Made by a program: the position numbers and the translations under genes. DNA of 64,000 nucleotides. Origin: a virus (Duplodnaviria; Caudoviricetes). Shown piece after piece: positions 17,829-36,309 of this stretch (position 1 is the first letter of the stretch; each line of letters opens with the position of its first letter). The stretch covers positions 32,001-96,000 of IMG/VR virus record IMGVR_UViG_3300038300_000071; one strand, written 5' to 3'. Below the pieces are notes generated by a model that saw nothing but the letters and a program-made list of their open reading frames with translations, was not told the origin of the DNA and did no database searches.

Positions 17829-18209
17829 ATGTTAAAAAATGAAGGCGTTTATTGTTCAGTAGGTCTAAGGGAGTCGCGAGGCTGCTTGGTCATTTATGAT
17901 AAGAAGGAACTAGACGGTTCTTTCTCTGGATTTTTGATTAATAGCGACGGAGCTCTAAGGAAGTATGAATGCGGAGTTTATCATCGTGAGAACGATCAGC
18001 CAGCCAGAGTAACGAAGGGCGGAGCTATGATTTGGTATATCGATGGAAAGATGAGAAGAGATTATGGCCTTCCTTGTTTGATAACCGATTCTGGAGAAAG
18101 AGTTTGGTTCTCAGAGAGTTCTGACGGACACATGAATAAAGATCGTACAATTTCACTAGAAGCATTGAATGGTGCTTTGGTTATTGGATTTAAAGAGATT
18201 GTAGAATAA
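17829..18209 (+). CDS. hypothetical protein with HR-x-D-x-PA repeat
   Basis: HRENDQPA / RRDYGLP repeat. Confidence 0.55.
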   Translation: MLKNEGVYCSVGLRESRGCLVIYDKKELDGSFSGFLINSDGALRKYECGVYHRENDQPARVTKGGAMIWYIDGKMRRDYGLPCLITDSGERVWFSESSDGHMNKDRTISLEALNGALVIGFKEIVE

Positions 18210-18232
18210 TATTAAAAAGAAGGAGACTTGTT

Positions 18233-18571
18233 GTGCCTAGATTAAAGCCAATGAAGAAAGAAGAAGTAATGGAGTTGCTTGACACTCTTAATGGAGCCAC
18301 GAAAATTGGCAAAAGTAGCGATGGTTCAAGGATTCACATAAGATATAGAAAGTTTACAAAGGATACTGCTTTGTCAGTTCAAGAGCGTGAAAGAGCTAAG
18401 GATCTGAAGATTAAAGATGATCGATATACTGGACGTTTGGATCGTGTTTATAAAAGTGGCAGTGGAGATACAATAATGACAATGTTAGTTGAGCTTGAAA
18501 GAGATCATAAGTATAGATCTTTCAATCTCGATAAAGGTGAATTAATAACAATAGCAGTTCTCGGAAACTGA
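18233..18571 (+). CDS. hypothetical protein
   Basis: AGGAG RBS, 112 aa. Confidence 0.6.
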   Translation: MPRLKPMKKEEVMELLDTLNGATKIGKSSDGSRIHIRYRKFTKDTALSVQERERAKDLKIKDDRYTGRLDRVYKSGSGDTIMTMLVELERDHKYRSFNLDKGELITIAVLGN

Positions 18572-18584
18572 AAGGATTAGAAAA

Positions 18585-18968
18585 ATGGCTTTGAAAAAAT
18601 TTACAACAGCAGATAAGAAAAAGATTGAACTTCCACCGAAGGCGATAACTATAAATACGCACGGGAAGATAGTTTTCAACAAAAGTGTTGAAATGTCATA
18701 TGATTTTAAAGAAAATTTAAAGTATGCCGTTATATGGTTCGATGATGTCAAGAATTTGGTTTCAATTTCATTTGCTGGAAGTGGGAAAGACGATGGAGCT
18801 ATGGAAGTTTCTCACTCTGACAGTGTTGGTTATCATATAAATGCGAAATCTTTTTTAACATGGGCAAAAATACCTTTCGAGAGAACTGCAACTTTCCCAA
18901 TGTCAGAAAAGGATAATCGTTTTATTTTTACTTTAAAGAAGAGTAAGCTCAAGAAGCCGCAAAAGTGA
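18585..18968 (+). CDS. hypothetical protein
   Basis: AGGA RBS, 127 aa. Confidence 0.6.
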   Translation: MALKKFTTADKKKIELPPKAITINTHGKIVFNKSVEMSYDFKENLKYAVIWFDDVKNLVSISFAGSGKDDGAMEVSHSDSVGYHINAKSFLTWAKIPFERTATFPMSEKDNRFIFTLKKSKLKKPQK

Positions 18969-19558
18969 TAACGGTTATTACCCCCACGTACAAGAGGCCA
19001 AAAGATATAATAGAGAGGGCTGTAGGCTCTCTCAGGGCTCAAACGTATGTAAAGTGGAATCAGATAATATGTTCTGATGGAAGAGCTGAGGAAGTGCCTA
19101 GAAGGATAGCCGAGTCGGAAGAGAACAAACATCGAGTAAGTTATACAAATTCAAGCAAGAGTTATAATGACTATGGGCCGGGTGTAAGGGCCGAGATGCT
19201 GGAGAGAGTTGACACTGAGTATGTTTGTTTCCTTGATGATGATAATATCCTAATGCCTACTTATCTTGAAAAAATGATAAAGGCGATAGAGGATGATGGG
19301 GTTGATTTGGCAATTTGTCATTGTCTTCATTATGGGCCTCTTCCTCGAAGTTTCGGCAAAGCTCCAAAGATAGTAACTGGAATGCCTCCAAAGCTTTATA
19401 ATATTGATACTATACAGATAGTATGTAAGACTGAAGCGATTAGGGATATTGGCTGGCAAACAGAGAGTGGATATTACGCTGACGGAGTTACTTATGAGAA
19501 GTTGGCAGAGAAGTATAAATATGTAGAAGTTCCAGAAGTGTTGGCACTCCATTTGTAG
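18965..19558 (+). CDS. glycosyltransferase family 2
   Basis: VITPTYKR, CSDG, FLDDDN DxD motif. Confidence 0.85.
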   Translation: MITVITPTYKRPKDIIERAVGSLRAQTYVKWNQIICSDGRAEEVPRRIAESEENKHRVSYTNSSKSYNDYGPGVRAEMLERVDTEYVCFLDDDNILMPTYLEKMIKAIEDDGVDLAICHCLHYGPLPRSFGKAPKIVTGMPPKLYNIDTIQIVCKTEAIRDIGWQTESGYYADGVTYEKLAEKYKYVEVPEVLALHL

Positions 19559-19619
19559 GGATATATTTTAATATTTTTTTAATATTTTTTCCCATTGTAA
19601 ATGGAATTAGGAGCAATAA

Positions 19620-20378
19620 ATGAGTATTATTAGTTTTGAGAAGGATTTCTTCGTAGAGGTCATCAAAGGTAATGTGTCAGGGCACTCAATGGTCAATAAA
19701 TTTGGATATAACCTATCCATAGACACAGGTTCAGTCCCTGAGGATGTTTGGAACGGCGGAGGTTTATATGCTGCGTTTAACGCAACAGCAGCAGAGATTG
19801 TCGAGGTGTTTTCATCTGATGCTGCGGATGATTCAGCGGGTACTGGGGCGCGGACAGTGGATTTGTTCGGGCTAGATGGTAGTTATAATGAAACATCAGA
19901 AACTGTTATTCTTGATGGAGTTACGCCAGTTAACACAGTTAATTCTTATTTAAGGCTAGATAGAGCTATTGTTATTACGGCGGGTACTGGCGGCTCTAAT
20001 GCTGGAGTCATAACAGCTCGGCAGAGTGTGACAACCGCAAATGTCTTCACGGCCATTCCGATTTCCCGCAATCAAACAAATATAGCAGCCTATACCATTC
20101 CAGCGGGAAAAACGGGCTATTTATATTCTCTTGGGGTAACGGTGTCGAAGGCTACAGATACTGAAGCCCAGTTTGATCTTTTTGTTAGACCATTCGGGGA
20201 AGTGTTTCAAGGCAAAGATCCAGGTGTGGCATCAAAGGCTGGTGGACAATACATTCGAAACACTCACCCGTGGCTTGAGATTACTGAAAAGTCTGACATT
20301 GTTGTCAGAGTTAGTTCAGTAGGAGCTAACGGTACTCAGGTTGACGCAAACTTCGCTATACTATTAGTTGACAATTAA
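19620..20378 (+). CDS. putative virion structural protein
   Basis: Beta-rich G/A/T/S composition, NKFGYN motif typical of phage structural proteins. Confidence 0.5.
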   Translation: MSIISFEKDFFVEVIKGNVSGHSMVNKFGYNLSIDTGSVPEDVWNGGGLYAAFNATAAEIVEVFSSDAADDSAGTGARTVDLFGLDGSYNETSETVILDGVTPVNTVNSYLRLDRAIVITAGTGGSNAGVITARQSVTTANVFTAIPISRNQTNIAAYTIPAGKTGYLYSLGVTVSKATDTEAQFDLFVRPFGEVFQGKDPGVASKAGGQYIRNTHPWLEITEKSDIVVRVSSVGANGTQVDANFAILLVDN

Positions 20379-20441
20379 AGAATGCGAAGTAGTCGTAAGA
20401 ACAAATGATGTGTGAGTATGAATAAATATTTAAAAAGTTAC

Positions 20442-20470
20442 TTGACATGTAGGCAATTAAGAAGTATATT
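20442..20470 (+). promoter_or_regulatory. sigma70-type promoter of tRNA operon 1
   Basis: TTGACA-17 nt-TATATT. Confidence 0.85.
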
Positions 20471-20513
20471 TGTGTTATAAGATTTAAAAACAATTTAAAA
20501 AGAGAAAGAAAAA

Positions 20514-20591
20514 ATGTTTAACAAGATTACAGCGATTGAACCTAAAGGGCCGGAAGCGATTAAGCTTTCAGGGCTAGGTGCGTTGCTGTAG
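20514..20591 (+). CDS. attenuator leader peptide 1 (MFNKITAIEPKGPEAIKLSGLGALL)
   Basis: 25 codons between promoter and terminator; K/I/A/E/P/G codons match the downstream tRNAs. Confidence 0.8.
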   Translation: MFNKITAIEPKGPEAIKLSGLGALL

Positions 20592-20620
20592 TGATTTAAA
20601 AAACATTAGTAACAATCTTT

Positions 20621-20659
20621 AAAAGCCCTGAAAGCGTAAAAGCTCTCAGGGCTTTTTTT
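20621..20659 (+). terminator. attenuator terminator 1
   Basis: agccctgaaagc-gtaaaa-gctctcagggct-T run; 5' arm is also perfectly complementary to 20564-20575. Confidence 0.85.
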
Positions 20660-20673
20660 ATGTAAAAATTTAA

Positions 20674-20747
20674 CTGTGTGTATGTCAGTCTGGTAGACAA
20701 CTCCCCTTGGATGGGAGAAGCCGTTCGTTCAAATCGAACCACACAGA
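20674..20747 (+). tRNA. tRNA-Pro(TGG)
   Basis: Cloverleaf; ctccc-ct-TGG-at-gggag. Confidence 0.85.
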
Positions 20748-20758
20748 CTTTTTAAATT

Positions 20759-20832
20759 GGGGAATTAGCTCATTTGGCTAGAGCGCTGCCTTTGCAAGGC
20801 AGAGGTAACGAGTTCGAACCTCGTATTCTCCA
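20759..20832 (+). tRNA. tRNA-Ala(TGC)
   Basis: Cloverleaf, G3:U70, ctgcc-tt-TGC-aa-ggcag. Confidence 0.95.
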
Positions 20833-20927
20833 CTGGTTGGTTTGAGTTTCAGTTAGTATTTTCTGTTCTCATGTAGACAAAAATGGAAAAATGAAGGAAA
20901 GGCAACCTTTTGAAAAAATGTCTATAT

Positions 20928-21002
20928 GCTACGATATGCAAATTAGTTAAGCAGCTTTTCTGATAAAGAAGTGATTTTCAGGTGCAAGTCCTGATCGTAG
21001 TA
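20928..21002 (+). tRNA. tRNA-Ile(GAT)
   Basis: Cloverleaf, ct-GAT-aa loop, variant T loop. Confidence 0.85.
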
Positions 21003-21008
21003 CTTTAA

Positions 21009-21079
21009 GTCTCTATGGTGTAATGGTAGCACAAGCGGTTTTCATCCGCTAGGACTCGGATCGTAACCGTGTAGAGGTA
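21009..21079 (+). tRNA. tRNA-Glu(TTC)
   Basis: agcgg-tt-TTC-at-ccgct, variant T loop. Confidence 0.85.
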
Positions 21080-21161
21080 TTTTAAGAAATAAAAGATGAA
21101 GTATTTAAGAGTTAGATGTAGATTTTAAAAAAAGTGATTGTATAGTAGTTCAAGTAATTAA

Positions 21162-21235
21162 CGGAATGTAGCGCAGTCTGGTAGCGCGTCTCGTTTGGGA
21201 CGAGAAGGTCGCAGGTTCGATCCCTGTCATTCCGA
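21162..21235 (+). tRNA. tRNA-Pro(TGG)
   Basis: Canonical CGG start, tctcg-tt-TGG-ga-cgaga. Confidence 0.95.
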
Positions 21236-21297
21236 TTTTTTAAAAAGAAAATAATAGGACGCAAGTGGGTTCTGAAATATGATAGGGATTTGGTAAA

Positions 21298-21963
21298 ATG
21301 GTAAAGAATTTAAATTTTGTAGTTTTAGCTTTAATTTTGGTTGTTTCTTTTGGTTGTGAGACTTTAGTGAAGAGGAGTTCTCTGGGGTCTTATGAAAAAG
21401 TTCTTTCATGGGGAGAAAGCGAAAAATTATATTATAGTAATTATAATTTTGTATATGTTGAGAGAGGAAAGAGTCATACGTTTGATGGAGTGAGTCGTGT
21501 TTATGATGCGGAGTTGATTGGATCAAGACAGGGAGAGAATTTAACTGTTTCCGAAGTTAGAGTCTTCTACAGAGATAAGTCCAAGTCATTTAAAGTAAAC
21601 AGGCCCGTTCTGAGTTTTGGAAATACTAAAGAGAATGGATATGGAGATAAGATTAAGACAGGCGGAATGCATTACATGTCGGCTGGATATCTTGATGATC
21701 TTTTGGCAGATGTTGGCAGATATAGGAAGTTGCTTGCGGGCAGTTATGAGCATTCTTCTGGCGCTAAAATAGTCCTAGATGAGAATGGAGAGGGTGTTTC
21801 TGGGAGTGAGAAGATTTTATTGTCAAATCAGTTTGGAAGGTCTGATCTTGTACTTACGAATGGACAAAGAAATCTTCCAGTTTTATCATTTGATGAAGGC
21901 GGCATGGTTCTTGGAAACGAGAAACATAAAATAGTTTTCAAGAAGATTAATGTTAAAAAATAA
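21298..21963 (+). CDS. putative lipoprotein
   Basis: Hydrophobic signal peptide ending in SFGC lipobox. Confidence 0.6.
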   Translation: MVKNLNFVVLALILVVSFGCETLVKRSSLGSYEKVLSWGESEKLYYSNYNFVYVERGKSHTFDGVSRVYDAELIGSRQGENLTVSEVRVFYRDKSKSFKVNRPVLSFGNTKENGYGDKIKTGGMHYMSAGYLDDLLADVGRYRKLLAGSYEHSSGAKIVLDENGEGVSGSEKILLSNQFGRSDLVLTNGQRNLPVLSFDEGGMVLGNEKHKIVFKKINVKK

Positions 21964-21979
21964 GATTTATGATTGTTGA

Positions 21980-22098
21980 TCATGCTGCGGTATGGTCGCA
22001 CTTTGATGACATGGCAATTTCGCTACCGCATCAAAGATCGAATTGGATAGCGGTATCCGATTTGACGGAATTGAGCAACTGCCGAAAAGGGTGCTCAC
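21980..22098 (+). ncRNA. unidentified structured RNA (candidate pseudoknot plus two hairpins)
   Basis: GC-richer intergenic island with several complementary pairs. Confidence 0.45.
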
Positions 22099-22100
22099 AA

Positions 22101-22216
22101 CAGTGTATGGCTGATATTGGTTAGGCTCGTCGATATTTATGATTACTAAATACACATTTAATGTGGCGGTGATTTCTATGATCTTCGATATTTGGGTTCG
22201 ATTCCCGAAACACTGA
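22101..22216 (+). ncRNA. tRNA-like RNA with expanded anticodon arm
   Basis: cagtgt/acactg acceptor, D arm, GGTTCGATTCC T arm, roughly 60 nt central domain. Confidence 0.6.
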
Positions 22217-22242
22217 TAGTTTTGAAAAGAAGAGTAGTATAT

Positions 22243-22314
22243 GCGAAAGTAGCTCAATGGTAGAGCACCATCCTTCCAAGTTGGTTGTTGCGGGTTCGAG
22301 TCCCGTCTTTCGCT
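22243..22314 (+). tRNA. tRNA-Gly(TCC)
   Basis: GCG start, ct-TCC-aa, U73. Confidence 0.95.
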
Positions 22315-22604
22315 TTTAGAATTATAAATTGGAGAATCCATAATGGGAATATTTTATTCATATTGCACAAGATGCAATAAACAACTTAGGTATTTTATTG
22401 AGTATGGTCATGATGGAATCGAGTGTGATGTATGTTCTCATTTCAATATCGATAGTGATGTAAAGGGAACACTTTTTAAATATAACAATGGCAGGCCGGA
22501 TGGCGCATTGAATATATGGGGAGAAGAAATAATGGAAAGTAAAATGAAACGAAAGATAAAACATAGCATTTAAAGCCTTCTAAGTTGGGGAGGCAAAAAT
22601 TAAT

Positions 22605-22678
22605 GCCTCCGTAGCTCAGTTGGTTAGAGCATCTGACTTTTAATCAGAATGTCATGGGTTCGAATCCCATCGGGGGCA
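22605..22678 (+). tRNA. tRNA-Lys(TTT)
   Basis: tctga-ct-TTT-aa-tcaga. Confidence 0.95.
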
Positions 22679-23141
22679 CTTTCAAAAGGGAGACGTTCGT
22701 GAACAACATAGATTATTTAAGAGAAGATTTAGCTCGGATTCTAGATAAGAGCAGTAGTCTGAGTTGTGAGTTTCTAAGTGCAGTTCTTGAGTTGAATATT
22801 ATGCGAAGAGAATTTAAAGTTTCGATGGGATCTAATTTTGATGGATTCTTGACAATAGGGTATAAAGAAGTATATAAATAAAAACAAAGAGGAAATAACA
22901 TGGTTTACAGTTTTAATTTTAGTGCGGAAGATGAAGTAGACGTAATTCAAGTTTTGGAAACTAAAAATGGATACGTTTACTTTCAAGATGGTGATAGAAA
23001 GGGAAGAATAGAAGAAAAGTTCTTTGCGATGAACTTTACCCATGTTGAAGCTCCACTGGTATAATAAAAAGAAACAATATATAAAAAGGACTTACTTTAA
23101 ATAGTAAGTCCTTTTTTTGTATAGTAATTATAAAATATACT

Positions 23142-23678
23142 ATGGTGGAAGAAATGTCGGTTCGTAAAGTAATATGGTTAACGGGAATGTCTGGTGCGGG
23201 AAAATCAACTATATCTTCAATGCTTGAAGAGAAGCTTTTGGTTAAAGGGTATAGTGTGAAAATACTAGATGGAGATGAAGTCAGGGAAAATCTAACTTCT
23301 GATCTTGGCTTTAGCAAGAAGGACAGAGATGAAAATGTAAAAAGAATTTCTTATGTGGCTAAATGTATATGCGATGTTGACGGGGTGGCCATAGTTGCTG
23401 CTATTTCTCCATACAAGGATGCAAGGCAGAAGGCTATATCTTTAATTGGTGAAGATAACTTTTTAGGAGTTTTTGTCAAGTGTGATATTGATACGCTGAT
23501 AAGCAGAGATGTTAAGGGTTTGTATGAAAAGGCTATTCGTGGTGACATTCCAAATTTCACAGGAATAAGCGATCCTTATGAAGATCCTTTAGGTTTTGAA
23601 GTTGTTTGTAATACAGCGGTAGAGACTATTGAAGAATCGGCAAACAAGATAATCAAGAAGTTGGAAGGTAAATCCTAA
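23142..23678 (+). CDS. cysC: adenylylsulfate kinase
   Basis: WLTGMSGAGKST, LDGDEVR, ISPY, RDVKGLY, FTGISDPYE. Confidence 0.95.
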   Translation: MVEEMSVRKVIWLTGMSGAGKSTISSMLEEKLLVKGYSVKILDGDEVRENLTSDLGFSKKDRDENVKRISYVAKCICDVDGVAIVAAISPYKDARQKAISLIGEDNFLGVFVKCDIDTLISRDVKGLYEKAIRGDIPNFTGISDPYEDPLGFEVVCNTAVETIEESANKIIKKLEGKS

Positions 23679-23981
23679 GTTTTTTTATATTCTAGCCGTA
23701 TGTAAACAGCTAGGGTCTAAAGATGTCAAGAAAAGTTATCATAAGTCTTTTTAAGTGCAGGCTAGATTGCAATCCTTTTGAGACGATAGAGAATAAGCCA
23801 GACGGGGCGTTGATGATATGGGGATTGAGCAGCATTCCAAGCTGTTATGATTTTCAGAATTATTTAGATTATATCAGAGATGCAATCGATATGAATAAAT
23901 CAAAGTAAAATTCTTCTTTAAAAATTATATTTCTTTTATAAAATTCATATTAGTAAATAAATGCTAACGTGGAGTTTTTAA

Positions 23982-24980
23982 ATGGGATATATCAAGAATC
24001 CTTCTGATAATGGTCAGTTTTGGAGAGAATCAGCGGCTAATGATAGCGCCTCTGTTTGGCATGGTTTTGATAGTAAAAATAACGGTAAAGACAAATTTTT
24101 CAAATCAGAAACATTGCCAAATAATCCAGATACCTTGAAAGAAACTGGAACTGTTTCTTCTAGTGGCGATAGGCTGTTGGCTGGTGTTTATGGAGATATT
24201 CCAAGTGTTTCTCTTTGGACTCCTGAGTCTATTATTACTGACGTTTGGTTTGATGCTTCTGATTCTAGCACCATTACTGAAATTGGGGGCCGAGTTAGTC
24301 AGTTGGATGACAAGAGTAATAATGCTGTACCTCAGAATATTGCTCAAGGGGTTGGATCGGAGCAGCCACAGACAGGAGTTGACACTTTAAATGGTTTGAA
24401 TGTGCTTACATTCGATGAGGCTTTCGATGAGGGTTTACAAAAGAATGGATGGGATAACATCGGTAAAGCGGGTAGTTTTTCTGTCTTTACTGTTGGGAAG
24501 ATGACGTCGAGTACAAATGGAAGCTTCCTAAACCTTCAAGATGATATGCATACTTACAGAAATAGATTTGATCCATATGGAAAGAGAACGTCGAGCAGTG
24601 TTCCAAAGTCCGTCAGTTATACAGAGCCAAGCTCGGCATACATTCTTAACGGAAATGCAAGATATGATGTGAGTCACACACTTCCTGACAGTTATTTCAA
24701 CGTTTTCATAAATGGTACACAAGAGGGTGTTAATGCCTTCTTCGACAATCCATTGCCAGAGAATGCCCCCAGTCCAAGGCTTGCAATGATGACTGCCAAC
24801 AATCCTGCCATTACAAATAGTGGAATAGTTGCAGAAGTTATAATCACCGAGGATATTGATGAAGTGTCTAGACAGAGAGTGGAAGGCTATTTGGCTTGGA
24901 AGTGGGGATTGGTAGACAGTCTTCCATCTAATCACCCTTATAAAAATAAACCTCCATACATTACTAGCGGAAACTTATAG
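23982..24980 (+). CDS. variable-core paralog 1 (putative LamG/ConA-like virion adhesin)
   Basis: Conserved N-term MGYIKNPSDNGQ...KSETLPN and C-term EGYLAWKWG...HPYK. Confidence 0.7.
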   Translation: MGYIKNPSDNGQFWRESAANDSASVWHGFDSKNNGKDKFFKSETLPNNPDTLKETGTVSSSGDRLLAGVYGDIPSVSLWTPESIITDVWFDASDSSTITEIGGRVSQLDDKSNNAVPQNIAQGVGSEQPQTGVDTLNGLNVLTFDEAFDEGLQKNGWDNIGKAGSFSVFTVGKMTSSTNGSFLNLQDDMHTYRNRFDPYGKRTSSSVPKSVSYTEPSSAYILNGNARYDVSHTLPDSYFNVFINGTQEGVNAFFDNPLPENAPSPRLAMMTANNPAITNSGIVAEVIITEDIDEVSRQRVEGYLAWKWGLVDSLPSNHPYKNKPPYITSGNL

Positions 24981-25043
24981 AGATTAGAGATATTTCTTTT
25001 ATAAAATTCATATTGGTAAATAAATGCTAATATGGAGATTCAA

Positions 25044-25985
25044 ATGGGATATATCAAGAATCCTTCTGATAATGGTCAGTTTTGGAGAGAATCAGCGGCT
25101 AATGACAGCGCTTCTGTTTGGCATGGTTTTGATAGTAAGAATAATGGTAAAGACAAATTTTTCAAATCAGAAACATTGCCAAATAATACAAAGGCTTTAA
25201 GTGAGTCTGGGTCTATTGCTTCTAGTGGTAATAGATTAATTGCTGGGGTTTATGGAGATCAAGCTTCTCTTCCTGCAAGTCTTTGGAATCCTTCTCTGAT
25301 GACATCTGTGGGTTGGTACGATGCTGATGATAGTTCTACAATTACAGAGTCTGCTGGAGCTATTAGCCAATGGGATGATAAGTCTGGGAATGACAATCAT
25401 GCTGTTCAGGGCGTTGGAAGCAAACAGCCAATTTACAATGCAAGTGATCCCGTGTTCGGTGGAAAGCCTTCCATATTGGGCGTTTTGGGTGATTATTTAG
25501 AAACTCCATCTATGTCAATAAATAGAATGTATTTAACTTTATATTTGGACGGTGTGGCAACGGCATGGCCAAATCATAATGCGGTAGTATCAGGGCCTTC
25601 TTTCCGTTTAACGGGTAGAGTTGGTGATGTTCACGTATGGGATGGCCCTAGAGACAATAAGAATTTTGATTTTAATGGAAGTACATTTAGGGATGGAAGT
25701 ACTGTTGATGTTAATTACGATCCAACTGGTTTGCCGATGGCGGGTGACATCTTTAGGATAAACGCTGAAAGCACAAAGACTCAAGTTTGGAGGTTGATGG
25801 GGAATACTCAAACATATACAACTTGGCATGGTGGTTTGGCAGAGGTGATATTTACAGACGGATCAGAGGATTTCAACACACAGCAAAAAATAGAAGGTTA
25901 CCTTGCTTGGAAGTGGGGATTTGTGGACAAGTTTCCAGCTGAGCATCCTTACAAGTCAGCTCCTCCATATATAGATGCTTATTAA
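25044..25985 (+). CDS. variable-core paralog 2
   Basis: Same termini; true start is MGYIK at 25044. Confidence 0.7.
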   Translation: MGYIKNPSDNGQFWRESAANDSASVWHGFDSKNNGKDKFFKSETLPNNTKALSESGSIASSGNRLIAGVYGDQASLPASLWNPSLMTSVGWYDADDSSTITESAGAISQWDDKSGNDNHAVQGVGSKQPIYNASDPVFGGKPSILGVLGDYLETPSMSINRMYLTLYLDGVATAWPNHNAVVSGPSFRLTGRVGDVHVWDGPRDNKNFDFNGSTFRDGSTVDVNYDPTGLPMAGDIFRINAESTKTQVWRLMGNTQTYTTWHGGLAEVIFTDGSEDFNTQQKIEGYLAWKWGFVDKFPAEHPYKSAPPYIDAY

Positions 25986-26054
25986 GATCATTTAAAAATT
26001 ATATTTCTTTTATAAAATTCATGTTAGTAAATAAATGCTAATATGGAGATTTAA

Positions 26055-26996
26055 ATGGGATATATCAAGAATCCTTCTGACAATGGTCAGTCTTGGAGAG
26101 AATCAGCCGCTGATAATTCGGCTATCCGTTGGCATGGTTTCGATAGTAAGAATAATGGTAAAGACAAATTTTTCAAATCAGAAACATTACCAAATGATCC
26201 AGACGCACTTGTTGCTGCTGGAGTCAATGCTTCTAGCGGTGATAGACTATTGGCTGGTGTTTATGGAGATATTCCAAGTGTTAATCTTTGGACTCCTGCT
26301 GGAGTCGTTACAGAACTTTGGCTTGATGCCACCGATGCTTCAACTATTACAGAATTATCTGGATCTGTGAGTCAGTGGGATGATAAGAGTGGTAGCGGTA
26401 ACGACTTCCCTCAGGGAAATGCATCCAGACAACCTATAACGGGAGTAAGAACTCTCAATGGCCTAAATGTTCTCGATTTCGATGGTGGTGATAGCATGCA
26501 AAGAGGGAGTTTGGCGAATGTGGCGAATGACTTCATTATGGTAGGAGTTTGGGATGTAGATTCGGGCGCAACACTGTTTTCAGAAACAGGTTCTCCTCAG
26601 GCTTGGAATGCAACAACTGCTGGTCTCACTACGCAATTGGATGGCACTATGCTTTACTCTGGAGGCACGATAAGCGGAGCAACTGTCGTTTCTTTTGATA
26701 TGAATCCTACGGGCCTTAATGCAGAGGCTTTTGTAAACGGAGAAAGTCAGGCAATACTTGCTCTGACGCAAAGCCTTGGAAATAGTACTGCCCGTATAGC
26801 TGCGAACTTTGTTGGCGGTTCTAATGTAGTTGGAGGAATGGGTGAAATGGTTATCTCCGATGACCGATCAGTAGAAACTCGTCAAAAGATCGAAGGATAC
26901 TTGGCTTGGAAGTGGGGTACGGAATCTGATCTTCCAGTTGGACATCCGTATAAGAACAAACCTCCATATATCACTAGTGGAAGTTTATTAGTTTAA
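26055..26996 (+). CDS. variable-core paralog 3
   Basis: Same conserved termini. Confidence 0.7.
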   Translation: MGYIKNPSDNGQSWRESAADNSAIRWHGFDSKNNGKDKFFKSETLPNDPDALVAAGVNASSGDRLLAGVYGDIPSVNLWTPAGVVTELWLDATDASTITELSGSVSQWDDKSGSGNDFPQGNASRQPITGVRTLNGLNVLDFDGGDSMQRGSLANVANDFIMVGVWDVDSGATLFSETGSPQAWNATTAGLTTQLDGTMLYSGGTISGATVVSFDMNPTGLNAEAFVNGESQAILALTQSLGNSTARIAANFVGGSNVVGGMGEMVISDDRSVETRQKIEGYLAWKWGTESDLPVGHPYKNKPPYITSGSLLV

Positions 26997-27054
26997 AAGG
27001 ATATTTCTTTTATAAAATTCATGTTGGTAAATAAGTGCTAATATGGAGATTTAA

Positions 27055-27996
27055 ATGGGATATATCAAGAATCCTTCTGACAACGGACAGTTTTGGAGAG
27101 AATCAGCGGCCAATGATAGTGCTTCTGTTTGGCACGGTTTTGATAGTAAAAATAATGGTAAAGATAAATTTTTCAAATCAGAAACATTGCCAAATGATCC
27201 AAAATCTTTAATTGCATCTGGAGCTATTGCTTCTAGTGGCGATAGATTTTTAGCTGGTGTTTATGGTGATCTTCCAAAAGTTTCTCTTTGGACTCCTGCA
27301 AAAATAGCCACATCTCTTTGGCTGGATGCCTCTGATCCTGCTACAATAACTGAGTCGGTAGGATCGGTCAGTCAGTGGGATGATAAGTCTGGAAATGGTA
27401 ACAATGTAATACAAGCCTCAGGAGTCAATCAGCCAGAAACTGGAGTAAGAGATATTAATGGATTAAACGTTCTTGATTTTGATGGCTCGGACAGCATGAC
27501 AAGAGGGGCTTTGGCGAGCAGATCTGATGATTTCATTGTGGTTGGCGTTTGGTATGTGGATTTTGTTATTTCAAGTCGCAGGAAGAATACGATGTTCGCA
27601 CAATCTGGGATATCTCAAGATTGGAATATGACAACCTCCGATATAGTCTTGCAGAGTGATGGATCTGATGCTTATTCTGGAGGCGTTTTGGCTGGTGTTA
27701 GTAGTATTATTTCTTATGATGTTAATTTTTCTGGATTGAATACTGAGGCTTTTATTAATGGTTCCAGTGAAGCGAATGTTGTGATGTCTCAGTCAGTAGG
27801 AAATTCCACAACAAATATTGGCATAGGGTTTACCGCTTCGAATTTCAATTTTTTCGGAGGTATGGGAGAGATTATTATCTCTAACGATAGATCTGTATCA
27901 ACTCGTCAAAAAATAGAAGGCTATCTTGCTTGGAAGTGGGATCAAGTTTCCAAGCTTCCTGCTGATCATCCTTATAAGAATGTACCACCCTGTTGA
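27055..27996 (+). CDS. variable-core paralog 4
   Basis: Same conserved termini. Confidence 0.7.
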   Translation: MGYIKNPSDNGQFWRESAANDSASVWHGFDSKNNGKDKFFKSETLPNDPKSLIASGAIASSGDRFLAGVYGDLPKVSLWTPAKIATSLWLDASDPATITESVGSVSQWDDKSGNGNNVIQASGVNQPETGVRDINGLNVLDFDGSDSMTRGALASRSDDFIVVGVWYVDFVISSRRKNTMFAQSGISQDWNMTTSDIVLQSDGSDAYSGGVLAGVSSIISYDVNFSGLNTEAFINGSSEANVVMSQSVGNSTTNIGIGFTASNFNFFGGMGEIIISNDRSVSTRQKIEGYLAWKWDQVSKLPADHPYKNVPPC

Positions 27997-28041
27997 TGGT
28001 GGTTGACTGAATCTTTATAAATACTAACATGGAGTTTTTAA

Positions 28042-28986
28042 ATGGGATATATCAAGAATCCTTCTGACAATGGTCAGTCTTGGAGAGAATCAGCGGCCAA
28101 TGATAGCGCTTCTATCTGGCATGGTTTCGATAGTAAGAATAATGGTAAAGACAAATTCTTTAAATCAGAAACATTGCCCAATGGTACAAAGGCTTTAAGT
28201 GAGTCTGGGTCTATTGCTTCTAGTGGTAATAGATTATTAGCTGGTGTTTATGGTAATCAATCTTCACTTCCTGCAAGCCTTTGGACTCCTAACAATATAA
28301 CTACATCAGCTTGGTTTGATGCTTCTGATGCGTCAACTATCACAGAGTCTGCCAATAAAGTTTCTCAATGGGATGATAAAAGTGGAAATAGCAAACACGC
28401 TGTGCAAGCAACTGGATCTCAACAACCGACCTATAAGCCTACCGATGCTAATATGAATGGGATGGGTAGTATCGGAGTTACAAGTAATACTGGAGCGAAA
28501 GGATTAGAAGTACCATCATTCGGAGCGAAGATTTGCTATACAGTCATTAGAAATGACAACGCCAACTTCTCATCATTCGATGTGCTGCTTGCAGGTGCGC
28601 TTGATAGATACCTTGTTCGTGGTAGTTCAGGAACTCCAGACTTCTATACTATCGGAACTCTTGAGTTCAATGATTTTACATATAAGAATGGTTCCACGGT
28701 AAGCACGGCCTTAAACGTACTTCCAATGCCGACAGCAACGATTTTCAAATTTGAAAGTGCCGCAATAAGAGAGCAGACATGGAGTTTCGGGTTTGGTAAT
28801 CAATGGGCTGGCAATAATAGAACATGGGATGGTGCTTATTCAGAGTTTATATTTACAGATGGAACTGAGGACTTATCTACACAGCAAAAGATCGAAGGAT
28901 ACCTAGCTTGGAAATGGGGAACAGAAGCTTCATTGCCTGTTAGTCATCCTTACAAGTCAGCTCCTCCATATATAGATGCTTATTAA
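28042..28986 (+). CDS. variable-core paralog 5
   Basis: Same conserved termini. Confidence 0.7.
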   Translation: MGYIKNPSDNGQSWRESAANDSASIWHGFDSKNNGKDKFFKSETLPNGTKALSESGSIASSGNRLLAGVYGNQSSLPASLWTPNNITTSAWFDASDASTITESANKVSQWDDKSGNSKHAVQATGSQQPTYKPTDANMNGMGSIGVTSNTGAKGLEVPSFGAKICYTVIRNDNANFSSFDVLLAGALDRYLVRGSSGTPDFYTIGTLEFNDFTYKNGSTVSTALNVLPMPTATIFKFESAAIREQTWSFGFGNQWAGNNRTWDGAYSEFIFTDGTEDLSTQQKIEGYLAWKWGTEASLPVSHPYKSAPPYIDAY

Positions 28987-29044
28987 TAGGATATTTCTTT
29001 TATAACTTTGTATTAGTAAATAAATGCTAACGTGGAGATTTTAA

Positions 29045-30076
29045 ATGGGATATATCAAGAATCCTTCTGACAATGGTCAGTTTTGGAGAGAATCAGCGGC
29101 TAATGATAGCGCTTCTATCTGGCATGGTTTCGATAGTAAGAATAATGGTAAAGACAAATTTTTCAAATCAGAGACATTGCCAAATGATCCAGCCGCACTT
29201 TCTGCCGCTGGAGTTAATGCTTCCAATGGAGATAGATTTTTAGCTGGTGTTTATGGAGATCAGTCTTCACTTCCTGCAAGCCTTTGGAATCCCGCTGAAA
29301 TATCCACTGAAGCTTGGTTCGATGCCAATGATGCTTCAACTATTACAGAATCAGCAGGAGCTGTAAGTCAGTGGGATGACAAGTCTGGCAATGTAAGAAA
29401 TCTTATTAACGCAACTGGCGTTCAACAGCCAATGACTGGAATTAGAACAATAGGCGGTTTAAACGCCCTAGATGCCGACGGGGTTACTCAACACCTATAT
29501 AACATTACAAACTTTGCATTTCCTGCCAGTGGAAACTTTATGGTGTTTGCGGTTGCAGTAGTAGACTCTTGCAGTGACAGAAATCAAGCTATATGGGCTT
29601 GGGATGATGATGTTGATATACAACTTGATAGTGCGCAAAACATTAATGAGTTCAGAGGTCGATTGTTTAACACTGACCCGACAAATCAAAACTTGCTATA
29701 CTCAACTAGCGACCCTGCACCATCTGGCTCAGTTATCGGACTAGACACGATGTGGACTACGGTCATGGACTTCACCGCAACGGAGAGTCACTTATATCGG
29801 AACGGACTTAATAGTGTGCTTAATCCAACAAAACTATATGCTAACAAGGTAACTAGTACTGGATTGCAACAGTTTACTGCGTTTCTAGGTGGATTCCCTA
29901 TTGCGTTTACTCATTTGCTTGATGGCGCAATAGGAGAGTTGCTTATGGTAGAAGGAACTGACACTATTACTCAACAAAAGATGGAAGGCTATCTTGCTTG
30001 GAAGTGGGGACTAGTCGCTAAACTCCCATCTGGTCATCCTTACAAGTCAGCTCCTCCATATATAGATGCTTATTAA
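29045..30076 (+). CDS. variable-core paralog 6
   Basis: Same conserved termini. Confidence 0.7.
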   Translation: MGYIKNPSDNGQFWRESAANDSASIWHGFDSKNNGKDKFFKSETLPNDPAALSAAGVNASNGDRFLAGVYGDQSSLPASLWNPAEISTEAWFDANDASTITESAGAVSQWDDKSGNVRNLINATGVQQPMTGIRTIGGLNALDADGVTQHLYNITNFAFPASGNFMVFAVAVVDSCSDRNQAIWAWDDDVDIQLDSAQNINEFRGRLFNTDPTNQNLLYSTSDPAPSGSVIGLDTMWTTVMDFTATESHLYRNGLNSVLNPTKLYANKVTSTGLQQFTAFLGGFPIAFTHLLDGAIGELLMVEGTDTITQQKMEGYLAWKWGLVAKLPSGHPYKSAPPYIDAY

Positions 30077-30113
30077 TAGGATATTTCTTTTATAAAATTC
30101 GTATTAGTAAATA

Positions 30114-30225
30114 GCTTGGTACGACCCATCAGATGAGAGCACTATAACTGAATCGGCAGGAGCGGTATCTCAGCTTGATGATAAGAGTGGTAATGATTAC
30201 GACCTCGTTCAAGCTTCTGGAGAAT
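30114..30225 (+). pseudogene. remnant of a seventh paralog
   Basis: Translates AWYDPSDESTITESAGAVSQLDDKSGNDYDLVQASG directly after the shared upstream motif; no start codon and no C-terminal part. Confidence 0.75.
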
Positions 30226-30277
30226 TAGTCATTAAGTCTAGATTGAGAGAATAAGTGATAAAAACTCTAAAAAGAAC

Positions 30278-30306
30278 TTGCAATTAACTATTTATCATGG
30301 TATATT
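30278..30306 (+). promoter_or_regulatory. sigma70-type promoter of tRNA operon 2
   Basis: TTGCAA-17 nt-TATATT. Confidence 0.8.
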
Positions 30307-30362
30307 GGTTACACAGAAGAAAAAAGTATTATTAAAAACAATTTAAAAGAAAGAGATTTAAA

Positions 30363-30440
30363 ATGAAATTTTCAAGCTACAATTTAAGCAATTGTTCGAG
30401 TTACTTATATAGTAATTCGTATGATCCTGTGCTTAAATGA
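30363..30440 (+). CDS. attenuator leader peptide 2 (MKFSSYNLSNCSSYLYSNSYDPVLK)
   Basis: 17 consecutive S/Y/N/L/C codons matching the downstream tRNAs. Confidence 0.85.
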   Translation: MKFSSYNLSNCSSYLYSNSYDPVLK

Positions 30441-30465
30441 GGTAGCAAATAATTTTAAATATTTG

Positions 30466-30506
30466 AATCCCCTTTTGAGCTAATCACTCAGAAGGGGATT
30501 TTTTTT
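30466..30506 (+). terminator. attenuator terminator 2
   Basis: aatccccttttgag-ctaatca-ctcagaaggggatt plus T run. Confidence 0.85.
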
Positions 30507-30519
30507 GTTTGGATTTTAT

Positions 30520-30609
30520 GGAGATAGTCCGGCATGGACGAGGACACTGTTTTGAAAGCAGCTGCGCACTAATACGGCGTCGAGGGTTCGATTCCCTCTG
30601 TCTCCGCCA
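30520..30609 (+). tRNA. tRNA-Ser(TGA)
   Basis: Long variable arm, G73, encoded CCA. Confidence 0.9.
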
Positions 30610-30641
30610 TTTTTAAAAGATAGGAAAGTAAGAAGTTAAAT

Positions 30642-30714
30642 GAACAATTGGCCGATTGGATATAGGCGCAGGATTGCAAACCCTGTTAGGCGAGTTCGAT
30701 TCTCGCATTGTTCT
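30642..30714 (+). tRNA. tRNA-Cys(GCA)
   Basis: tt-GCA-aa loop, U73. Confidence 0.9.
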
Positions 30715-30718
30715 CTAA

Positions 30719-30808
30719 GGAATGGTATAACGAAATTGGTATCGTCGCTGGTTGCTAACCAGTTCAGCAGGTTAAATGGCTGTGTGGGTTCGAGTCCCAC
30801 TCATTCCG
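30719..30808 (+). tRNA. tRNA-Ser(GCT)
   Basis: gctgg-tt-GCT-aa-ccagt, long variable arm, G73. Confidence 0.9.
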
Positions 30809-30828
30809 CTTTAATGAAGAAGTTTGAA

Positions 30829-30905
30829 GTGTATATTTGTCCAAGGTGGCGATATGTTACGCATTGTAGTTCAGGAACTAGGTTCGAGTCCTAGCTTATA
30901 TGCAC
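30829..30905 (+). ncRNA. tRNA-like RNA without a canonical anticodon loop
   Basis: gtgtatat/atatgcac stem and ctagGTTCGAGTCctag T arm; no 7-nt anticodon loop. Confidence 0.5.
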
Positions 30906-30913
30906 TTTTTTTT

Positions 30914-30986
30914 GATGGAGTAACCAAATTGGTATTGGTCTTGCCTGTTAAGCAAGTATGAGTGAGTTCGATTCTCATCTCCATCT
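30914..30986 (+). tRNA. tRNA-Asn(GTT)
   Basis: cttgc-ct-GTT-aa-gcaag; atypical U73. Confidence 0.8.
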
Positions 30987-30990
30987 TTTT

Positions 30991-31062
30991 AGGCGTGTAT
31001 CTCAATGGTAGAGACTTCGGTTGTTACCCGAAAGGTTGCTGGTTCGAGTCCAGCCGTGCCTG
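30991..31062 (+). tRNA. tRNA-Asn(GTT)
   Basis: ttcgg-tt-GTT-ac-ccgaa, G73. Confidence 0.85.
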
Positions 31063-31078
31063 TTGTTAGTAAGAATAA

Positions 31079-31160
31079 GCCGCTGTGGGGGAATTGGCAT
31101 ACCCGACGAGTTTAAGCCTCGTTGCCTTTGTGCATGAGAGTTCGAATCTCTCCAGCGGTA
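31079..31160 (+). tRNA. tRNA-Leu(TAA)
   Basis: acgag-tt-TAA-gc-ctcgt, variable arm, A73. Confidence 0.9.
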
Positions 31161-31167
31161 TTAACAT

Positions 31168-31241
31168 AGCTCTGTAGCCGAATTGGCATAGGCGGCAGTC
31201 TCAAAAACTGTAATTTACAGGTTCGAGTCCTGTCAGAGCTA
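31168..31241 (+). tRNA. tRNA-Leu(CAA), short variable loop
   Basis: gcagt-ct-CAA-aa-actgt, A73. Confidence 0.85.
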
Positions 31242-31245
31242 CTAT

Positions 31246-31320
31246 GTATTCATAGCTTAATGGTAAAGCGCAGTAGCAAATTGTATGAGCAAGATGTTGG
31301 TTCGATTCCAGCTGAATACG
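31246..31320 (+). ncRNA. tRNA-like RNA with aberrant anticodon arm
   Basis: Perfect acceptor, D and T arms; anticodon arm closes only a 5-nt loop. Confidence 0.55.
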
Positions 31321-31339
31321 TTAATGGAAATAAATATAA

Positions 31340-31421
31340 GTCGTCGTATATGTCTAAGGAGGACATCCAGTCTGTAAAACTGGCGCTTTGAGCTCGGTGG
31401 GATCGTTACCCACAGGCGACA
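31340..31421 (+). tRNA. tRNA-Tyr(GTA)
   Basis: ccagt-ct-GTA-aa-actgg, variable arm. Confidence 0.85.
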
Positions 31422-31425
31422 TTTT

Positions 31426-31470
31426 AAAAAAACTCTTTTAGTCTGATATAATAGGCTGAAAGAGTTTTTT
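31426..31470 (+). terminator. terminator ending tRNA operon 2
   Basis: aaaaaactcttttagtct...aggctgaaagagtttttt. Confidence 0.75.
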
Positions 31471-31705
31471 ATGGATTACAGACATGAGCGAAGGAACGGG
31501 AGCGTGTAATGGAAAATATACTTAAAGGGTTGCATGAGAAAGATCCTGCAAACAGGGTTGAATTTTCTTGTTTGAATAAGAATAAAGTTTTATGTTGGAT
31601 ATGCTATAAGGACGGCAAGAGGATTTTATCTGGATGCGAATCGGGAAAGAATCACAAAGAGGCCTTGGAAAATACAATGAATAACTTAAAAGAATAAGGA
31701 TTGTT

Positions 31706-32062
31706 ATGACTAATTCTACAGCGAAGTATCCTTTTATTCCAGAGTCAGCGGAAGGAAGAGTTGTTAATATTACTTGGACGGATGACGATGAATTTAAAAT
31801 GTTTGGAAAGTATAAGTGGAAGAATGGCGAAACTAAAACGATCAAGACGGAAGAGTGGTGGGTGGTTAGAAATGATGTTCACGGAAGATCTACTCTGTAT
31901 AATTCTAGTCATGGAAGTGATAACTCGAATTCATTTACGACTGAGAACGGGATTACGGTAAGAGTTCAAATGAACAATGATTATCTTCAAGTTGGAGAGA
32001 AAGTTGGAATTGAAGAATATGCTCCTGTTCCTGAAAAGATTTATTATTGTTATGGAACGTAA
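31706..32062 (+). CDS. hypothetical protein
   Basis: 118 aa ORF with AGGA RBS. Confidence 0.55.
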   Translation: MTNSTAKYPFIPESAEGRVVNITWTDDDEFKMFGKYKWKNGETKTIKTEEWWVVRNDVHGRSTLYNSSHGSDNSNSFTTENGITVRVQMNNDYLQVGEKVGIEEYAPVPEKIYYCYGT

Positions 32063-32138
32063 GAATAAGTTCATGTGAGATAAATTTAATATTGTTATTG
32101 TTAGTGTAAGATGACAATATTAAATAACGAGGTTAAGC

Positions 32139-33038
32139 ATGAACATTTTGATAAGTTATGCATTTATAAGAAGAAGTAAAGCATTGTTCAACTATGCATT
32201 GGCAATTTCTAAACATTGTAATGTATTGATCGATAGTGGCGCATTCAGTGCCTTTAAGTCTGGAGAAGTAATAACGTTAAAGGAATATAATAATTTCTGT
32301 AAGAAGTATGGAAAAAACTTTACAGGATATATTCAGCTTGATGTTATTGGAGATAAAGTACAGACTGAAATAAATTACCAAAAAAGCTTAGACGAGGGAT
32401 TGACTCCAATTCCCGTTCTTCAGGTTGATGAGGATGTAGAGAAGTCTATAAAGTTAAAAGAGACAACTGATTACATTTGCATATCAGGCCCAGCCGTAAG
32501 AGGAATTTCGAAAGAGTGGGTTTCTGAGAGGATCAGACAAGTTTATGATTTAACTGGATTGAAGATGCATGCTCTTGGCTTAGGCCCAACTGATGATATA
32601 GGAGATATACCTTTGTATTCTTGCGATAGCTCTGGATATACTATTCCGGGTATGAACTATCTTATTTCGCTGTTCAATGGAAAGAATTCGCTGCTTCATG
32701 AGCTTGATGATATGAAGTCTCTAGTGTTTGCTTCTAAGTGCGAAACAAAGGCTTTAAAAAATGGAAACAACAGTTTGTCTTACTTCTCTGGATTTTATTC
32801 TTATCTTCTGTATCAGCATTATATAAAAGAGAGTTTTGATAAGAACTATTATTTTGCAATTGCAAATAGTGACAATCTGAGAAGGCTTGCTTATATTTGT
32901 AGTACGAGTACTGTTGATAAACCAGATTATATGGGATATTATCATACGTTTAGAAATTACCGCATTAGCAATAGTAAAAAGCATATGATGACTGCTGTCC
33001 TTAAATATGGAAGTATGTTTAAATATTCAAACTTTTAG
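32139..33038 (+). CDS. TGT-fold (DpdA/queuine transglycosylase-like) protein
   Basis: IDSGAFS, QLDVIGD, PIPV, MHALG, SCDSS motifs. Confidence 0.7.
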   Translation: MNILISYAFIRRSKALFNYALAISKHCNVLIDSGAFSAFKSGEVITLKEYNNFCKKYGKNFTGYIQLDVIGDKVQTEINYQKSLDEGLTPIPVLQVDEDVEKSIKLKETTDYICISGPAVRGISKEWVSERIRQVYDLTGLKMHALGLGPTDDIGDIPLYSCDSSGYTIPGMNYLISLFNGKNSLLHELDDMKSLVFASKCETKALKNGNNSLSYFSGFYSYLLYQHYIKESFDKNYYFAIANSDNLRRLAYICSTSTVDKPDYMGYYHTFRNYRISNSKKHMMTAVLKYGSMFKYSNF

Positions 33039-33116
33039 AAACGTGCTCCTTAAAATATCATAAGTTATTCGATAGAGTAGAGATAGTACAATTTTAAATT
33101 AGATTAGGAATATTTT

Positions 33117-34049: not shown

Positions 34050-34200
34050 GTCTATATCGGAATAACAATTCTGTAAACATCTTATCAAAAGCCAGTGTTA
34101 ACTCTCATATTTTTTTTATAAGAAAGCATCTTATAGAGGTAGAGTCAATGCTGGCTTTTTTGTGTTTAAAAACAAGTTTAAAATTAAGATGGGTGTTCAG

Positions 34201-34947: not shown

Positions 34948-34950
34948 ATT

Positions 34951-36123: not shown

Positions 36124-36140
36124 AAAGTTTAATAAAAAGT

Positions 36141-36169
36141 TTGACATGTAAAGAAGTTAGAAGTATACT
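36141..36169 (+). promoter_or_regulatory. sigma70-type promoter of tRNA operon 3
   Basis: TTGACA-17 nt-TATACT. Confidence 0.85.
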
Positions 36170-36206
36170 GTAGTTATAAATTTAAAAAAATTAATGAGTA
36201 GATATA

Positions 36207-36287: not shown

Positions 36288-36309
36288 GTTATAAATCTAC
36301 ATTATTTTT

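Follow-up and report, generated by a model that had tools for sequence, protein, structure and literature searches.

Leader-peptide attenuation of transcription is a textbook mechanism, known for amino acid operons and for a few other genes. In enterobacteria, multivalent leaders such as ilvL (ilvGMEDA operon; Ile, Leu and Val) and thrL (Thr and Ile) gate the biosynthetic enzymes for the amino acids that they sense. Why phages carry transfer RNA (tRNA) genes is an old question, and it has been proposed that these genes compensate for differences in codon usage, help the phage to survive the degradation of host tRNA or let it evade defenses that cleave tRNA. Here we analyze a stretch of 64,000 nucleotides (nt) of phage DNA (the window), which comprises bases 32001-96000 of IMG/VR virus record IMGVR_UViG_3300038300_000071 and in which a short leader, termed leader 1, precedes a block of seven tRNA genes. 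Judging from the sequence and from computed RNA folds, leader 1 is likely to be a ribosome-mediated (leader-peptide) transcription attenuator that gates these seven tRNA genes and a few small open reading frames (ORFs). On balance, we also favor the broader view that huge phages carry an undescribed class of tRNA-demand sensors, in which a multivalent leader serves as a checklist of the codons that its tRNAs read, and each tRNA set is transcribed only upon slow decoding.

The strongest support for this proposal is provided by internal replication together with leader-specific codons, leader 1 alone being suggestive only. The same cassette precedes all four tRNA blocks of the phage (4/4; spans compared, 20436-20672, 30272-30518, 36135-36394 and 46332-46562), and the four blocks together cover 19 amino acids. 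When the residues of each leader were scored against the amino acids of each block, the resulting 4 × 4 matrix had a diagonal of 16/24, 14/24, 16/25 and 18/27 and off-diagonal values of 0-9, and the true leader-block pairing scored at the top of the 24 permutations. The binomial P values for leaders 1 to 4 were 6e-3 (against a proteome background of 39% for the six amino acids of block 1), 1.6e-4, 1.1e-5 and 6e-5. Gly and Leu show a split by isoacceptor: the leader-1 sensor uses GGG and its block carries Gly-TCC, while leader 4 uses GGC/GGT and its block carries Gly-GCC; likewise, leader 2 uses TTA with Leu-TAA, and leader 4 uses CTA/CTT with Leu-TAG.

The promoters of leaders 1 and 3 have TTGACATGTA...AGAAGTATA in common, and the terminators of leaders 1, 3 and 4 have AAAGCCCT...AGGGCTTTTT in common, while the leader ORFs are wholly different. 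Because promoter and terminator sequences are shared while the ORFs differ, this pattern suggests that the cassettes may be diverged duplicates in which the ORF codons were retuned to each block. Four codons of leader 2 specify Tyr, and the contig has no clear gene for tRNA-Tyr; for this reason, the identity of the tRNA-like gene at 31246-31320 matters for the leader-2 cassette. This gene (Rfam, 47 bits) has an anticodon arm that is 4 nt overlong, and ARAGORN reported it only in relaxed mode, as Cys(GCA) with poor geometry.

The first-pass annotation of this DNA had read codons 4-17 of the leader-1 ORF as AAG ATT ACA GCG ATT GAA CCT AAA GGG CCG GAA GCG ATT AAG and had matched 13 of the 14 to the downstream tRNAs. 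Both statements hold, as only ACA (Thr) falls outside the set of Lys, Ile, Ala, Glu, Pro and Gly. Under strict wobble rules, 12 of the 14 codons are readable by the anticodons of block 1, and CCT additionally requires a modified U34. All six amino acids of the block are already present in codons 4-13. Among the 737 ATG-initiated ORFs of 20-35 codons on the contig, the leader-1 ORF ranks first for content of these six amino acids. In a test of six frames, only the leader-1 frame was both open and matched, with 16 of 24 residues compared to 4-12 in the other five. The sensor uses synonymous codons that are rare in the phage, namely GCG (0.13), GGG (0.13) and CCG (0.08), and these rare codons could raise its sensitivity.

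The RNA downstream of the sensor can adopt mutually exclusive folds, built from four segments (Table 1). As had been noted before, the 12-nt core of segment 2 is exactly reverse-complementary to the core of the terminator 5′ arm (segment 3), and the terminator 3′ arm has one mismatch to the 5′ arm. An exact 12-nt complement of the 5′ arm occurred in none of 20,000 shuffles of the upstream 141 nt, in which the longest was 11 nt, seen twice. The further claim, that segment 2 is a better match to the 5′ arm than the 3′ arm is, holds for the 12-nt core only, as the terminator has four extra A-U pairs (AAAA/UUUU). Since these four pairs are present only in the terminator, the two duplexes are close in energy, at -23.8 kcal/mol for the antiterminator versus -22.3 kcal/mol for the terminator. 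In the free RNA, the predicted fold combines the terminator (stem 20621-20656, hairpin of -21.9 kcal/mol, followed by a U-tract ending at 20659) with a protector hairpin that spans the ORF (20526-20592, -29.6 kcal/mol); the core of the latter is an inner hairpin of segments 1 and 2 with a 6-nt loop (-14.1 kcal/mol).

The effect of a ribosome was modeled by masking a footprint of -15 to +12 around the A-site codon while the region 20475-20665 was folded. On the full-length leader without a ribosome, the probability of the terminator was 1.00 and that of the antiterminator 0.00. The latter rose to 0.04 with the A site at codon 4, 0.39 at codon 7, 0.84 at codon 10 and 0.78 at codon 13, and it was 0.00 again at codon 20 and at the stop codon. 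Codon 13 is the last one at which the A-site footprint (end at 20562) stops short of segment 2 (start at 20564). The fold comparison suggested in the first-pass annotation, with and without masking of 20560-20600, was also carried out and gave the terminator in both cases (probability of the antiterminator with the mask, 0.00). On a transcript truncated at 20640, which lacks segment 4, any stall at codons 4-13 gave the antiterminator with a probability of 1.00, compared to 0.13 for the ribosome-free RNA. Collectively, a promoter and short ORF, matched codons, a terminator, mutually exclusive helices and a suitable geometry were all found in these sequence and folding tests, in agreement with the earlier proposal of an attenuator with a matched sensor.

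A mechanism can be proposed on this basis. Host RNA polymerase would start from the promoter, and a ribosome would translate the 25-codon ORF while the leader RNA emerges. If the Lys, Ile, Ala, Glu, Pro and Gly codons are decoded fast, the ribosome would pass over segment 2 to the stop codon, segments 1 and 2 would pair behind it, segments 3 and 4 would pair in turn, and transcription would end at 20659. If cognate charged tRNA is scarce, the ribosome would linger on codons ~7-13, covering segment 1 and exposing segment 2, which could then capture segment 3 by 12 perfect pairs before segment 4 exists. No terminator would form, and the polymerase would continue into the Pro, Ala, Ile, Glu, Pro, Gly and Lys tRNA genes. 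The newly made tRNAs would relieve the stall, closing a negative feedback loop. We infer from sequence and folding that the ORF is translated, that the terminator functions, that folding follows this kinetic order, that a physiological trigger exists and that read-through responds to tRNA supply. The trigger could be a host tRNA pool that fits the codon usage of the phage poorly, the disappearance of host tRNAs in the course of infection, or tRNA cleavage by host anticodon nucleases.

Two variants of the mechanism were considered and rejected. In one, efficient translation would melt the terminator and give positive feedback; a ribosome terminating at the stop codon would not reach the terminator stem, which begins ~30 nt further downstream. 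In the other, the leader ORF would be extended by TAG read-through with the CTA-anticodon tRNA of the phage; a TGA directly follows the TAG of leader 1. The region 53760-53946 holds this 87-nt tRNA, whose CTA anticodon makes it an amber suppressor and whose variable arm is long; it lies 70 nt past its own promoter-like TGGACA-17-TATAAT and has no leader cassette. TAG ends 27 of 149 long plus-strand ORFs and thus is still a widely used stop codon.

Table 1. Positions of the leader-1 elements, the sibling cassettes and the leaders located in two other huge phages (window coordinates unless another piece is named)
Feature	Position	Strand	Remarks
Promoter, sigma-70 type, TTGACA-17-TATATT	20442..20470	+	11/12 consensus positions
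5′ untranslated region with weak purine-rich Shine-Dalgarno-like GAGAAAG	20496..20513	+	GAGAAAG 8-14 nt upstream of ATG
Leader ORF, 25 sense codons, predicted peptide MFNKITAIEPKGPEAIKLSGLGALL	20514..20591	+	ATG 20514, TAG 20589-20591
Sensor codons 4-17, K I T A I E P K G P E A I K	20523..20564	+	
Segment 1, within sensor codons (codons 10-15)	20541..20557	+	partner of segment 2 in free RNA
Segment 2, antiterminator 5′ strand	20564..20578	+	core 20564-20575 = GCTTTCAGGGCT
Segment 3, terminator 5′ arm, used by terminator and antiterminator alike	20621..20635	+	core 20624-20635 = AGCCCTGAAAGC
Segment 4, terminator 3′ arm and U-tract	20642..20659	+	arm GCTCTCAGGGCT 20642-20653, one C-A mismatch; seven T 20653-20659
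Proximal tRNA genes	20674..21235	+	Pro(TGG) 20674-20748; Ala(TGC) 20759-20833; Ile(GAT) 20928-21003; Glu(TTC) 21009-21079; Pro(TGG) 21162-21235
Distal tRNA genes	22243..22679	+	Gly(TCC) 22243-22314; Lys(TTT) 22605-22679
Palindromic terminator, apparently bidirectional	23083..23118	.	likely end of leader-1 transcription unit
Leader 2 cassette	promoter 30278; ORF 30363-30440; terminator 30465-30501	+	
Leader 3 cassette	promoter 36141; ORF 36207-36287; terminator 36310-36345	+	
Leader 4 cassette	promoter 46338; ORF 46411-46497; terminator 46522-46556	+	
Tunturi_5 leader-terminator units, on sequence pieces of PP885688.1	L017 657-807; L018 623-780; L019 574-774		
Tunturi_5 unit, MKTLCLSSYCLSSSLSLS...			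upstream of Leu, Cys, Leu, Leu, Tyr, Leu, Ser, Ser, Ser
Tunturi_5 unit, MQHVSTFRFAVPATAGNPAGQQGT...			upstream of Gln, Gln, Gly, Thr, Thr, Thr, Pro, His, Ala, Ala, Ala, Phe, Pro
Tunturi_5 unit, 49-codon ORF rich in D/I/R/G/K/V/W/E/M			upstream of Trp, Asp, Met, Met, Lys, Val, Lys, Arg, Arg, Glu, Glu, Arg, Arg, Val, Ile, Gly
LR745208.1 leader, MNQHLHHHCY	L025 about 2900-2975		upstream of Tyr, Cys, His
LR745208.1 leader, MNSYTTSERERESDSERT, E/D-rich	L020 about 3230-3320		upstream of Glu, Asp, Glu
LR745208.1 leader, R/G-rich ORF			upstream of Arg, Arg, Arg, Gly, Gly
LR745208.1 leader, P/A-rich ORF			upstream of Pro, Ala
LR745208.1 leader, T-rich ORF			upstream of three Thr tRNAs

The source record has 202,452 bases (37% G+C) and is an estimated ~62% complete. 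It carries 29 ARAGORN tRNA genes and two aberrant tRNA-like genes, every one on the plus strand and inside the window. Its large terminase is 34% identical to that of LR745208.1, a 485-kb uncultured phage, and 28% identical to that of Tunturi_5 (PP885688.1), a 309-kb cultured acidobacterial phage that infects Tunturiibacter. Because even these nearest two relatives are so distant, the sequence comes from a huge phage with no close sequenced relatives.

In both of these genomes, which were selected by terminase similarity, the tRNA genes were located and the DNA upstream of each block was inspected. In Tunturi_5, all three tRNA blocks start 8-96 nt past a strong terminator, which is itself preceded by a short ORF, and the 3 × 3 leader-by-block matrix is again diagonal, with values of 16/31, 23/36 and 37/48. 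The one leader checked for annotation in this record, that before the Leu/Cys/Tyr/Ser block (L017), carries none, and the genome paper (PMC11924767) makes no mention of leaders, terminators or attenuation. In LR745208.1, the leaders given in Table 1 were recognized, and those encoding MNQHLHHHCY and MNSYTTSERERESDSERT are very short, match their blocks sharply and each lie behind a TTGACA/TATACT-like promoter. Two or three blocks of this GC-rich genome have no convincing leader, and a simple scan detected no canonical U-tract terminator directly upstream of any of its tRNA blocks. The design is therefore widespread but non-uniform. Like leader 1, the other cassettes (Tunturi_5, LR745208.1 and leaders 2-4) combine a promoter, a short ORF rich in the amino acids of the following tRNAs and a tRNA block, and in Tunturi_5 and leaders 2-4 a clear intrinsic terminator closely precedes the first tRNA as well; unlike leader 1, these cassettes have a different block composition and GC content, and they share no sequence homology with it.

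Seven units have a clear terminator, and in six of them the sequence that pairs best with the terminator 5′ arm lies within the 3′ part of the leader ORF, past the matched codons. The duplex of arm and partner has an energy of -22.6 kcal/mol in leader 1 (reached by 0 of 300 shuffles), -11.8 kcal/mol in leader 3 (11/300), -13.3 kcal/mol in leader 4 (6/300) and -10.5 to -14.4 kcal/mol in the three Tunturi_5 units (15-53/300), while leader 2 has no significant partner (-5.6 kcal/mol; 139/300). Leader 1 has by far the strongest antiterminator among the seven units compared and, with its four segments and perfect 12-base-pair antiterminator, is the structurally cleanest example.

Several observations weigh against the attenuator proposal or limit it. 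At equilibrium on the full leader, a stall at codons 4-6 yields little antiterminator. With a ribosome on the stop codon and segment 4 absent, a 10-base-pair antiterminator is still preferred at equilibrium (probability, 0.83), because ten bases of segment 2 are free in that position. Termination under fast translation must thus rely on kinetics, and it is plausible that the local hairpin of segments 1 and 2 forms before the long-range helix of segments 2 and 3. Leaders 2-4 have far weaker antiterminators, at -5.6 to -13.3 kcal/mol. The Shine-Dalgarno-like element of the leader is also weaker than that of typical genes of this phage: long genes have AGGA/GGAG at -12 to -8, and all four leaders have just an (A/T)GAG core there. 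The rare GCG, GGG and CCG codons may be dictated by the GC-rich segment 1 rather than by tuning of sensitivity. Furthermore, stalling cannot distinguish a missing tRNA from a missing amino acid, and extra tRNA is useless in the latter case.

Searches of viral and metagenome contigs yielded no usable orthologue of the leader-1 locus, which also counts against the proposal. The upstream protein (19620-20378) matched two viral and six metagenome contigs at 34-46% identity, none of them with tRNA genes nearby; among viral contigs, the in-operon ORF 21298-21963 had no relatives and a degenerate pattern of the leader-1/leader-3 promoter had 0 matches. A DNA search of 19000-23000 against cultured phages gave matches through tRNA genes only. 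At Rfam gathering scores, no leader, T-box or riboswitch family was found at leader 1; the best leader-type match was His_leader, with 19.8 bits versus a gathering score of 49 (E = 0.33), and the T-box model gave no match in 20430-20680 even at E up to 10. A full-text literature search, which did not extend to subscription-only literature, found no published description of tRNA genes, phage or bacterial, under the control of a leader peptide.

The leader-1 promoter ties with that of leader 3 as the top-scoring promoter-like site in a scan of 18000-37900, and transcription is predicted to start near 20477-20478. Only 14 nt separate the U-tract from the first tRNA gene (Pro); no promoter-like site was found in this gap, which leaves no space for one. 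Between 20660 and 23083, no plus-strand terminator-like site was detected besides one tRNA T-arm. Because of the missing promoter in the 14-nt gap and the missing plus-strand terminator before 23083-23118, the leader-1 unit probably extends over ~2.6 kb and would include the leader, five tRNA genes, ORF 21298-21963, tRNA-Gly, ORF 22343-22573, tRNA-Lys and two small ORFs. The two named ORFs separate the distal from the proximal tRNA genes, and the inclusion of tRNA-Gly and tRNA-Lys in the same unit is also argued from the GGG and AAG/AAA codons in the leader. ORF 22343-22573 has CxxC pairs. The small ORFs of the unit had no family matches, and the regulated genes are thus seven tRNAs and small ORFs, with no biosynthetic enzymes among them.

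A sensor of general translation capacity or of transcription-translation coupling, as in attenuators of the pyrBI type, to which the amino acid match would be secondary, is improbable. It would fit the fact that the modeled switch reacts to any stall in codons 7-13 regardless of the codon, and the weak ribosome-binding site makes initiation itself a possible variable. However, such a sensor would not need four leaders with four codon sets, each fitting its own block, and it leaves unexplained the same matching in two other phages and the Gly/Leu isoacceptor split. We give even less credence to a self-contained small gene, encoding a 25-residue peptide or a small RNA, with the tRNAs transcribed by constitutive leak-through or from an unrecognized promoter and with the codon match having some other cause. 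A promoter and a terminator ~180 nt apart are also the layout of a small-RNA gene, and the four peptides are mutually dissimilar, which is not what one protein family would look like. Yet the 14 nt between the terminator and the tRNA contain no promoter-like site, every tRNA block here (4 of 4) and in Tunturi_5 (3 of 3) shows the same close spacing, the codon match is block-specific and far beyond chance, and the exact 12-nt complement to the terminator arm would have no role.

Least probable of all, and in our view very unlikely, is direct binding of a tRNA or a protein by a riboswitch-like RNA, in the manner of a T-box or a protein-dependent antiterminator, the ORF being incidental. The choice between terminator and antiterminator is indeed also the output platform of T-boxes and of protein-dependent attenuators. 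Nevertheless, neither the T-box nor any other Rfam model scores above threshold, the specifier of a T-box is a single codon and not a set of six amino acids, and the frame-specific open ORF with matched codons would be left unexplained. Ribosome-mediated attenuation remains our preferred account of leader 1.

Other features of the genome were recorded during the analysis. The two Pro(TGG) tRNAs of block 1 are very unlike, as the one at 21162-21235 is typical (67.5 bits) and the one at 20674-20748 is divergent (58.1 bits), with an odd acceptor stem and D arm. The tRNA gene at 49060-49169 (Rfam, 52 bits) carries ~35-37 inserted nt in its anticodon arm, and ARAGORN in intron mode reported it as Thr(AGT) with a 37-nt intron; the insertion-bearing gene could represent an intron, a disrupted gene or a decoy. 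Directly past the terminator of the leader-1 operon, 23142-23678 encodes an adenylylsulfate kinase (Pfam PF01583, E = 5e-54), an auxiliary metabolic gene. The region 23982-30076 contains five tandem ORFs (313-343 codons, ~1 kb spacing), each with an internal promoter-like (T/C)TGGCA-16-AATAAT; the first matches the virion structural protein family phrog_10356, and the region looks like a paralogue array that occupies the gap between tRNA blocks 1 and 2. Outside the window, at G000 21871-23877, a 668-residue protein (phrog_1735, E = 2e-280) shares ~55% identity with proteins found in many phages (~145 kb) of Klebsiella, Serratia and Salmonella. Its relatives are variously annotated, some as RNA polymerase, and it is conserved far better than the terminase.

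If the proposal is true, it would show phage tRNAs to be an on-demand supply induced by slow reading of their own codons, and it would name the signal to which their genes respond. Rather than being a constitutive supplement, they would then be induced when host tRNAs become depleted, be it through host shut-off, a mismatch in codon usage or host anticodon nucleases. Leader-peptide attenuation would extend to RNA genes and with an unusual multivalency, six amino acids in one leader. As Tunturi_5 has the same design and is in culture with its host, Tunturiibacter psychrotolerans, the question is directly testable. Furthermore, the cassettes are of a size that suits reporter and cell-free assays, and they could act as natural codon-specific reporters of tRNA availability.

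Compared to the known attenuators, leader 1 shares its layout most clearly with ilvL and thrL, in which a short translated ORF samples several amino acids and a stalled ribosome favors an antiterminator over an intrinsic terminator; translation of leader 1 is predicted. Unlike them, leader 1 would gate tRNA genes and sample six amino acids; it is borne by a phage, and it has no sequence relation to them, as seen in the absence of an Rfam match. As in trpL of the E. coli trp operon, segments 1:2 and 3:4 pair when the RNA is free and segments 2:3 pair when a ribosome covers segment 1, and, as in trp superattenuation, folding predicts termination without translation. In contrast to trpL, the stop codon of leader 1 lies 13 nt beyond segment 2 and not before it, the regulatory codons are of mixed identity over ~10 codons rather than two tandem Trp codons, and the targets are tRNAs.

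T-boxes likewise couple the tRNA status of the cell to a decision between terminator and antiterminator upstream of translation-related genes. However, a T-box binds uncharged tRNA directly through its specifier codon and uses no ribosome, whereas leader 1 matches no T-box model and has an open, frame-specific ORF. In its purpose, leader 1 resembles pheM, which precedes pheST for a tRNA synthetase in E. coli, as in both cases leader-peptide attenuation adjusts the decoding apparatus and not amino acid synthesis. While pheM senses one amino acid and controls a protein enzyme, the product under leader 1 would be the tRNAs themselves, giving direct feedback on the sensed quantity. What is new in the proposed system is the application of ribosome-mediated attenuation to phage tRNA operons by means of a six-amino-acid leader, and because the regulated genes are tRNAs and not enzymes, it stands outside every described leader family.

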